A stretch of 64,000 nucleotides of DNA from Octopus vulgaris (taxonomy: Eukaryota), in NCBI GenBank assembly GCA_951406725.2, contig OX597837.1, forward strand, positions 23,498,001-23,562,000, written 5' to 3'. The notes beneath the pieces were generated by a model that saw only the letters and a list, made by a program, of their open reading frames with translations, was not told the origin of the DNA and ran no database searches. Shown here piece after piece: positions 13,734 to 56,830 of this stretch. The position numbers were made by a program, and so were the translations under genes. The stretch's first letter is position 1; every line of letters begins with the position of its first letter.

Positions 13734-14199
13734 GACGCAGGAGTGGCTGTGTGGTAAGTAGCTTGCTAACCAACCACATGGCACCTTGGGCAAGTGTCTT
13801 CTACTATAGCCTCGGGCCGACCAAAGAGGAATATTTTTAAAGAAAGAGTGATATTGTCATTCTATGTTTTATTTTGTCCATTGAAGGTTTTGATTCTTTT
13901 GTCATTATGTTTATTGTTGTGTTTTTCTTGTGAATTCTTTATAAATATATAGATTTGCTAGAATTTTATTTCATATTGGATTTAAGAGACATATCTACAT
14001 TTCCAAAACAAGATTTTCTAATTTAGTTTATTTAGAACTAGTAATCACTTAGTAAAATGTAAACTATTAGGAACATCTGATTTATTCTAAATAGTTCAAT
14101 TGTCATTGAGAATTGAGTTTAAAATTTATTAATAGGTGTAAGACCAGTGAGAACAATCAAAATCAAATCATATATCAGAAAGCAGGGGTTAAGTGACCC

Positions 14200-15120
14200 A
14201 TCTGTTCGTGTCCGCTGTCAGCCTCGTCTGGCACCCGTGCTGGTGATACGTAAAAGCACCATTCGCTCATGGCCGTTTGCCAGCTCTGCCTGGCCCCGTG
14301 TCGGTGGCAAGTAAAAGCACCATCCGTTCGTGTTCGTTGCCAGCCTCGCCTGGCCCCGTGCCGGTGACACGTAAAAGCACCGTCCGTTCGTGGCCGTTGG
14401 CCAGCTCTGTCTGGCCCCGTGTCGGTGGCACGTAAAAGCACCATCCGTTCGTGGCCGTTTGCCAGCTCTGTCTGGCCCCGTGTCAGTGGCACGTAAAAGC
14501 ACCATCCGTCCGCATCCGTTGCCAGCCTCGGCTGGCCCCCGTGCCGGTGACACGTAAAAGCACCATCCGTTCGTGGCCATCTGCCAGCTCTGTCTGGCCC
14601 CGTGTCGGTGGCACGTAAAAGCACCATCCGTCCCTGTCCGTTGCCAGCCTCGGCTGGCCCCCGAGCCGGTGACACGTAAAAGCACCCTCCGCTCGTGGCC
14701 GTTTGCCATCTCTGTCTGGCACCCGTGTCGGTGGCACGTAAAAGCACCATCCGTTCGCGTCCGTTGCCAGCCTCGGCTGGTCCCCGTGCCGGTGACACGT
14801 AAAAGCACCATCCGCTCGTGGCCGTTTGCCAGCTCTGTCTGGCAACCGTGTCGGTGGCACGTAAAAGCACCATCCGTTCGTGTCCGTTGCCAGCCTCGGC
14901 TGGCCCCCGTGCCGGTGACACGTAAAAGCACCGTCCGTTCGTGGCCGGTTGCCAGCTCTGTCTGGCCCCGTGTCGGTGGCACGTAAAAGCACCATCCGTT
15001 CGTGTCCGTTGCCAGCATCGCCTGGCCCCGTGCCGGTGACACGTAAAAGCACCATCCGTTCATAGCCGTTCGCCAGCTCTGTCTGGCACCTGTGCAGGTG
15101 GCATGTAAAAAACACCCACT
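14200..15120 (+). repeat. GC-rich minisatellite, 15 units of ~60-62 bp inside a family C element
   Basis: Anchor cacgtaaaagcacc recurs at ~14248, 14309, 14369 ... 15041, 15103. Two unit variants (gccagcctcg / gccagctctg) largely alternate. Confidence 0.95.
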
Positions 15121-55012: not shown

Positions 55013-55288
55013 ATATGTATATATATATAATATCATTAATAATAGAGATTATGGAGCATTGGAAGAATTCACTGAGTGACTAGCAACAAATTGTAGTCAC
55101 AGACATTGAATACTGATTGTTGTGGTAAGCCGTTAACTGGAACATAACTGGAACTAATACAGCATCCATCTGGATAATATATCCCTCCAAACTCACTTAT
55201 ATATATATGTGTGTGTGTGTATGTATATATATATATGTATATATGGATATATATATATGTATATGTGTATGTATATATATATGTATAT

Positions 55289-55489
55289 ATCATCATCATC
55301 ATCATCATCATCGTTTAATGTCCATTTTCCGTGCTGGCATGGGTTGGACGGTTCAACTGGGGTCTGGGAAGCCCGAAGGCTGCACCAGGCTCCAGTCTGA
55401 TCTGGCAATGTTTCTACAGCTGGATGCCCTTCCTAACGCCAACCACTCCGTGGGTGTAGTGGGTGCTTTTTACGTGCCACCTGCACAGT
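55289..55489 (-). mobile_element. 5'-truncated family C element fused to U6
   Basis: Same sequence as 3281-3470; (GAT)n tail at the 55289 end. Confidence 0.88.
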
Positions 55490-55597
55490 AAAAAATATGG
55501 AACGCTTCACGAATTTGCATATTATCCTTGCACAGGGGCCATGCTAATCTTCTCTGTATCACTCTAATTTTAGAATATGTACCGCTGTAGCTAGTAG
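55490..55597 (-). pseudogene. U6: Full-length U6 snRNA copy (probable retropseudogene)
   Basis: Reverse complement reads tactagctacagcggtacatattctaaaattagagtgatACAGAGAagattAGCatggcccctgtgcaaggataatatgcaaattcgtgaagcgttccatatttttt. ACAGAGA box, AGC triad and 3' end are intact, with scattered substitutions; upstream is (TA)n, with no recognisable promoter. Confidence 0.95.
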
Positions 55598-55676
55598 CTA
55601 TATATATATATATATTTTAGAATATGTACTGCCGTAGCCGTATATATATATATATATATTATATATATATATACAT

Positions 55677-55762
<86 letters not shown>

Positions 55763-56830
55763 CACACACACACACATATTTATATATATATACATATACA
55801 TATATATATGTATGTATGTATGTATATATGTATGTATGTGTGCATGTATGTATGTATGTTTGTAGAGGCAATTATGCAGATAAATGAATTAGATATATTA
55901 AATGTAATATAATAGTTTGGCCAGGAAACATAAAATATGTATATATGTATATATGAAAAACGAGAGAAAGCAGAAGATGAAGAATTTCAGACAATGGACA
56001 TTTTAAGTACCAATATTATATTTAACCCACATAATGTGTCTATATCCGCTCAACTTGATCCCTCAAATAGAACTTTCTTTACCCTGTGGAATCAATCCCC
56101 TGTAAAGAATTCGGAATCTAAGTTTGAATCTTTTTGAGTATTACTATGTGTCTTCTATATGGAAAATCTCTGGATCAAATCTGTGGACTATATATGTGTG
56201 CGTGTGTGTGTGTGTGTATACGTGTGAGTGTGTGTGTATCAGTGTATAAATATATTGTAACTAACTTAAAGTTCATTTGTTCTTCATCACTGCTTGGTGC
56301 TGAAGCTGATATTTTCATTCCCACCAGGTGGTCCATCACTGATGTTGACTGTTTTTAGATAAAGCTACGGCTTCAAATCTGCCAAGGGTTATCTCTCTTC
56401 AATATTCCCCATTGAGGAAGGCTAAAGAGTCAGAAATACACGTCTGGGAATACGCTCTTATGTTGAGTTAAATAAATGCACGAGTGTCTTTTCATACAGG
56501 TATGTCCCCTGCATCCCTCTTCAGATGAGCATTCCTAATCTTGTGGGTTTGTGGTTAGGGGTGTCATGTGAAAAGTACTTGTAATGCCGCCACATAAAAA
56601 GCACCCATGCTGATGCTACATAGAAAATACCCGGTACTCTCCATAAAGTGGTTGGCATCAGGAAGGGTATCCATCTGTAGAAACCATGCCAAAGCAGACA
56701 TGGAGACTGGACAACTCTCCAGCCGACCAGCTTCTGTCAAACCATCCATCTCATGCCAGAATGGAAAACAGGCATTAAATGATGACGATGATGATGATGA
56801 CATATATATATATATATATGTATGTATGTA

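Follow-up and report, generated by a model that had tools for sequence, protein, structure and literature searches.

Anatomy of the U6/family C locus

The window is a 64,000-nucleotide stretch of the Octopus vulgaris genome (assembly GCA_951406725.2, contig OX597837.1), and it contains a single match to an RNA family of Rfam. This match, to U6 snRNA (RF00026), lies at 55491–55597 on the minus strand and covers positions 1–105 of the 105-position model with a score of 88.9 bits. Immediately downstream of it are the 3′ part of a repeat, which we call family C, and its (GAT)8 tail, all three co-oriented. In the direction in which the minus strand is read, the locus is composed of the following features.

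55641–55837, unstranded: TA/TG microsatellite flank on the 5′ side of U6, which masks any target-site duplication
55614–55640 (about), minus strand: extra U6 5′ piece, corresponding to U6 nucleotides 7–31 (96% identical)
55598–55613, minus strand: (TA)n run separating the extra U6 head from the main U6
55491–55597, minus strand: full-length U6 snRNA retrocopy
55489–55495, minus strand: junction, comprising a six-T run and one base that is foreign to the native family C context
55313–55488, minus strand: 5′-truncated family C, the end of an RTE-like LINE 3′ UTR, broken in its last ~61-nt tandem unit
55289–55312, minus strand: (GAT)8 tail of family C
55198–55288, unstranded: TA-type microsatellite flank past the tail

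The six-T run occupies 55490–55495 and is followed by one extra base at 55489, after which family C extends from 55488 for ~200 nt to its (GAT)8 tail, retaining the native 3′ end found in other family C copies. A preliminary description of this DNA had reported that a complete U6 ending in its T-tract abuts family C with no spacer, which holds to within one base, that at 55489. The same description placed a second U6 5′ piece at 55615–55641; the piece is real, and its end, 55641, was one base off. Such a same-strand extra piece is found at the window locus alone among the 87 U6 chimeras described below. As the two U6 heads carry different CpG changes, the duplication of the head is old, and the extra head has diverged independently of the main U6 copy. 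Because both flanks are microsatellites, a target-site duplication is unreadable at this locus.

The U6 of the window differs from the clustered U6 genes of this genome at 9 of 107 positions (8.4%), four of which are at CpG. The genes comprise a tandem cluster of seven with a variant 5′ stem (L005–L009, L019 and L080, at C1:139.42 Mb) and a dispersed gene of a second variant (L095), and the chimeras stem from both variants. Upstream of the cluster genes and of L095 lie an octamer, at −76 to −78, and, near −30, a stretch resembling a TATA box. Eight gene loci have the octamer, whereas the U6 of the window and every one of the 87 chimeras are devoid of it. The U6 of the window is thus a promoterless retrocopy, with neither gene flanks nor an external promoter. 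The family C part has a best identity of 94.9% among the 90 copies compared (that is, it is 5.1% from its nearest copy), and the ages of the two parts are roughly alike.

Retroelement partners and their parent LINEs

Family C is represented by about nine copies in the window, the longer of which contain tandem units of ~61 nt. In one copy, at 14198–15110 of the window and 3′-truncated, the 3′ UTR contains a tandem array of about 15 of the 61-nt units. A search of the genome with the reverse transcriptase (RT) profile PF00078 found no locus ending in the family C tail among the best 30 RT loci. A query made of the 5′ part of the family C partner in a second chimera, L106, retrieved longer family C copies that run upstream into the end of an ORF, and 23 of 29 such copies end in a tail of the window type. 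The longest copies contain broken endonuclease and RT frames; the RT match (RVT_1) scores 68.3 bits, which is over the cut-off, and the endonuclease match in the broken parent copy scores 20.1 bits, below the cut-off of 27.4. The full-length relatives found for the parent ORF each consist of one protein of ~1,040–1,100 amino acids with both endonuclease (EN) and RT; they lie on contigs of ~3.5 kb and are 51–62% identical. One of these relatives matches human L1 ORF2p with 116 bits only.

Family C is accordingly the 3′ UTR of a LINE that encodes endonuclease and RT in a single ORF. The single ORF with an AP endonuclease and an RT, together with the microsatellite tail, is as in the RTE clade, and we take the parent to be RTE-like by this architecture and by its C-terminal motif. 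A look-up of clusters and a search of the PDB yielded no clade name for the parent LINE. RTE LINEs with microsatellite 3′ UTRs have been reported in octopus (PMC9115989, in the part available to us), and PMC5786205, in its accessible part, gives context on RTE-derived parts of SINEs. The partner proposed in the preliminary description, an RTE-like, (GAT)n-tailed non-L1 retroelement, is thus matched by a LINE 3′ UTR with RTE-like features. A strict U6/L1 chimera is ruled out by the (GAT)n tail, the single-ORF EN and RT relatives and the 116-bit match to L1 ORF2p.

Other chimeras end in short tails. One of these, T1, is the end of a young LINE family, the RT motifs of which we assume to be of the CR1 type, and its motif has 7,989 exact matches in the genome. 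Thirty T1 loci sampled by position comprised 18 LINE ends, 3 SINE ends, 2 U6 chimeras, 6 stand-alone tails that begin at the start point seen in chimeras and 1 tail that begins 12 nt upstream of it. Loci L211–L239 include a young LINE family resembling CR1, in which RT frames are open over long stretches and identity between copies reaches 99.9%. The start points of four related tails of ~50 nt all fall a few bases at most from one GGCGG-type motif, in 35 of the 87 chimeras as well as in stand-alone insertions (examples are L061, L098, L104, L109, L099 and others, and L214, L216, L217, L222, L224 and L240). This start may be a fixed truncation or processing point located just before the 3′ structure of the LINE.

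Recurrence of U6 chimeras and the number of insertions

The genome scanned measures 2.8 Gb in 227 contigs. A U6 search yielded 695 candidates, 40 of which were scored, and an exact 24-nt motif from the U6 3′ end had 207 matches (0 for the control). For a positional sample we read 90 loci, which cover 92 of the first 100 motif matches listed. Eight gene loci and five of six tandem segmental copies were removed to give 77 loci, and three loci that were present in duplicate were also dropped before counts were made. At 64 of these 77 non-gene U6 ends a same-strand repeat starts within 30 nt, at one the repeat is antisense, and at 12 none was scored. The background rate at which the 5′ boundary of a same-strand repeat falls within 30 nt, determined with the same library in the window and the 30 RT loci, is 1.1%, so that 0.8 of 77 would be expected by chance. 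The partner library was cut from the same loci, and two of these, L122 and L127, match themselves, with partners that match 3 and 31 of the sequences compared. The enrichment of U6–repeat junctions over chance that the preliminary description had put forward as a check is thus very large, and U6 and family C at the window locus are not chance neighbours. By extrapolation, about 150 chimeras would be present among the exact motif matches, with more among older copies.

Pooling of 122 loci gave 87 distinct chimeras. In 41 of them the partner is a SINE retained up to its 5′ end (20, 18 and 3 in three families), in 35 a ~50-nt tail, in 6 family C and in 5 another sequence. The six family C chimeras (the window locus, L032, L050, L106, L124 and L139) are all broken at different points. 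According to the earlier description, different family C junctions would mean recurrent formation and identical ones a U6-headed SINE; six chimeras with six junctions mean the former. The U6 part is mostly near-full-length, starting by nucleotide 8 in 53 of the 87 chimeras, and T-runs of 4–7 are found in 63. A defined partner start is available for 72 junctions; U6 meets it directly in 16 of these, extra bases intervene in 36 and 20 are unscorable.

Several loci have unusual layouts. The lone antisense case, L120, consists of U6, an A-run and then the inverted 5′ part of a SINE, S1. One U6 chimera is present six times in a ~20-kb tandem segmental array (L068–L073, C1:132.42–132.53 Mb). U6 is joined head-to-tail to a second U6 in L084 and L091, and an inverted U6 arm lies upstream of the U6 3′ part in L107, L108, L115, L121 and L148, as in hairpin-type insertions. 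The downstream sequence is common to L107, L108 and L137. In L024, L025 and L130, the U6 3′ end is trimmed and an A-run separates it from the partner, which is the arrangement expected of oligoadenylated U6.

Target-site duplications bear on whether U6 and its partner arrived together. Duplications with a score of at least 11 enclose U6 and the partner in 12 of the 87 chimeras, one of which (L105) reflects a neighbouring SINE instead, and enclose the partner alone in one (L149, a tandem copy); permuted pairs gave 0–2. For chimeras with SINE S1, in a count that omits two without a recognisable end, the duplication encloses U6 and the partner in 7 of 17 and the partner alone in none of the 17, as compared to 21 of 272 mismatched pairs. 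No duplication could be read at the window locus or at the five other family C chimeras. Plain family C copies likewise show none of at least 9 nt (0 of 20), which makes its absence from the window locus uninformative.

We consider it very probable that U6 and family C at the window locus represent a single insertion. The converse, that family C inserted later behind an existing U6 copy, by chance or through a preference for the T-run, draws on the abundance of family C, the missing duplication and the somewhat greater divergence of the U6 part from the genes than of the family C part from its nearest copy. It is nonetheless quite improbable, given that 64 sense and a single antisense junction were observed where 0.8 was expected, that the S1 chimeras never carry a duplication around the partner alone and that the layout recurs in five more family C chimeras.

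Mechanism of formation and relation to known chimeras

We propose the following model for the window locus. The RT of the LINE would copy the last ~200 nt of the LINE RNA and then jump onto the 3′ end of U6 RNA, so that the chimera is inserted in one step. Priming would take place on the (GAT)n tail within an AT microsatellite, the enzyme would jump where a broken template ends, adding one base, and the extra U6 head would stem from a second short jump or from a local duplication. The inserted product would be dead. The other chimeras were likely formed by the same process, in which RTE-like and CR1-like enzymes would participate together with the SINEs that depend on them. We assign this template-jumping origin of the window locus a probability of roughly 0.6.

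Template jumping is favoured over a ligation of the two RNAs by the joins to SINE 5′ ends, a three-part insertion, the U5 chimeras and the extra bases at junctions. In 41 of the 87 chimeras, U6 is joined to a tRNA-type SINE (identified by partial A and B box matches) at its 5′ end, at which a 5′ triphosphate is expected. Experiments with RtcB gave full-length products in 0 of 26 cases with a triphosphate partner, a 5′-OH partner being needed (PMC6789731, in the part available to us). In the three-part insertion L025 (C1:217667312 area), a 24-nt duplication surrounds a SINE 5′ piece, U6 and a full SINE, a layout for which a join at the U6 5′ end is needed. This end of U6 is capped. Two of 26 matches in a U5 search are dispersed copies (L297 and L299), both joined to SINE 5′ ends; the U5 of L299 is 3′-truncated and has a 20-nt duplication, and L297 keeps four bases of the gene 3′ flank. 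The available part of PMC8594491 reports that non-LTR RTs perform end-to-end jumps in vitro and add untemplated bases, and that overhangs of more than 2 nt inhibit jumping. A possible match of the U6 gene 3′ flank to the junction was dropped, the stretch being too short to test.

Alternatively, in a single insertion as well, RtcB could first have ligated U6, through its 2′,3′-cyclic phosphate, to a LINE RNA whose cleavage had left a 5′-OH, and copying of the hybrid would have begun at the (GAT)n end. Such ligation has been demonstrated for human U6/L1 (PMC6789731, as far as accessible). The window partner is internally broken and could have carried the required 5′-OH, its U6 ends in a six-T run, and the T-runs of 4–7 fit the ligation of mature U6. 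Several findings across the set likewise weigh against jumping: (i) the strong preference for U6, since chimeras account for 2 of 26 U5 matches and for none of the 30 top U2 loci, the latter all gene-like and thus a weak sample, (ii) junction extras that are in some cases longer than 2 nt, (iii) extra bases before SINEs that could be leader sequence of the source locus, and (iv) the constant position at which the short tails are broken, their near-fixed join point in 35 of 87 being what a cleavage site would give. Ligation, however, does not account for the SINE 5′-end joins, the tripartite L025 or the U5 chimeras, nor for the extra bases at many junctions, including the one at the window locus, where the extra U6 head would moreover require a second step. 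We therefore regard ligation as possible at the window locus but clearly the less probable course, and the two processes may both operate. A U6-headed SINE family amplified from a master copy, akin to the SINEU elements, would explain why 35 of the 87 share the layout of U6 plus a ~50-nt tail with a near-fixed partner start, and an Octopus vulgaris annotation lists one ‘U-L1’ consensus of 52,753 bp (PMC13282606, seen in part). Against it, all six family C junctions differ, linkers vary within each class, recurrent U6 substitutions are scattered over partner classes (one cross-class pair has two common non-CpG changes), the heads trace to two variants of the U6 gene (31 and 10) and the upstream octamer occurs in none of the 87. 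Furthermore, family C and T1 each share their 3′ end with a parent LINE, which sets both apart from a SINE family by Kojima’s criterion (PMC4494074, accessible part). For family C, this reading is largely refuted, and we hold it to be the least probable of all those weighed here.

By its layout, the window locus appears to be a U6/non-LTR chimeric pseudogene of group IV of Doucet 2015 (PMC4476161, this and the following points resting on its accessible part). There, too, U6 precedes the 3′ end of a LINE or SINE in the same orientation, several LINE clades take part in one genome and duplications are short or absent with some partners. The preliminary description had regarded such a non-L1 partner in an invertebrate as undescribed; for the non-L1 partner, this is contradicted by that report of U6-L2 and U6-Mon-1 in platypus and of U6-L1, U6-L2, U6-RTEX-2 and U6-AnolisSINE2 in Anolis. 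The report covers vertebrates only, with no occurrence of the word ‘invertebrate’ in its available text; the octopus, in contrast, is an invertebrate, with 87 distinct chimeras sampled as opposed to 40 and 16 reported. Octopus U6 parts are mostly near-full-length, whereas those of platypus are nearly all 5′-truncated, and, unlike in group IV, half of the octopus partners are SINEs complete to the 5′ end. The human U6/L1 chimeras attributed to RtcB ligation (Moldovan 2019, PMC6789731, in part) share with the window locus a short U6 T-run joined to a 5′-truncated LINE. The octopus partner differs in not being L1 and in ending in (GAT)n rather than poly(A), and many octopus junctions have features unexpected of ligation, namely a position at a SINE 5′ end or extra bases.

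Crocodilian SINEU (Kojima 2015, PMC4494074, in part) also places an snRNA-derived head on a retroelement tail, but its heads are U1 or U2 derived from master copies, whereas the octopus chimeras have independent junctions and parent LINEs with the same tail. Membership in SINEU was rejected: no junction or master-copy changes are shared, and the family C and T1 3′ termini occur in parent LINEs. The ‘U-L1’ SINE class mentioned above is one family labelled as a U/L1 chimera, the size of which could fit the chimeras. In the text and supplement as available, the name is a table label, with ‘snRNA’ and ‘chimer’ occurring 0 times, and the comparison is one of label and size; the family may be the octopus U6 chimeras (PMC13282606). 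Of further reports, PMC11838501 deals, in the part available to us, with L1 only, PMC2104539 is listed as a paper on fungal chimeras and the retroSeeker paper (PMC11727581), as far as accessible, contained nothing relevant. The literature searched, outside of which lie subscription journals and Repbase reports, held no description of U6 chimeras from molluscs or from any other invertebrates.

More tentatively, the octopus genome would contain a few hundred independent U6 chimeras, formed mainly by end-to-end jumping of RTE-like and CR1-like enzymes and representing the first such set from a mollusc. In this set, jumping and ligation might be separated in vivo by partner class, with full-length SINEs accessible to jumping only and contrasted with ~50-nt CR1-type tails that share one fixed break in four tail families. 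Such tails would point to a minimal recognition RNA that arises by processing, and to an initial step of SINE birth that has occurred repeatedly.

Most U6 matches in the Octopus vulgaris genome are presumably dead chimeras, with 8 gene-like loci seen to carry promoter elements. Taken singly, the window locus is ordinary, and the set is of modest importance. It extends the formation of U6 chimeras from vertebrates to a cephalopod, at a larger scale than in the platypus or lizard reports, and its natural junction classes bear on the question of ligation versus template switching for LINEs other than L1.
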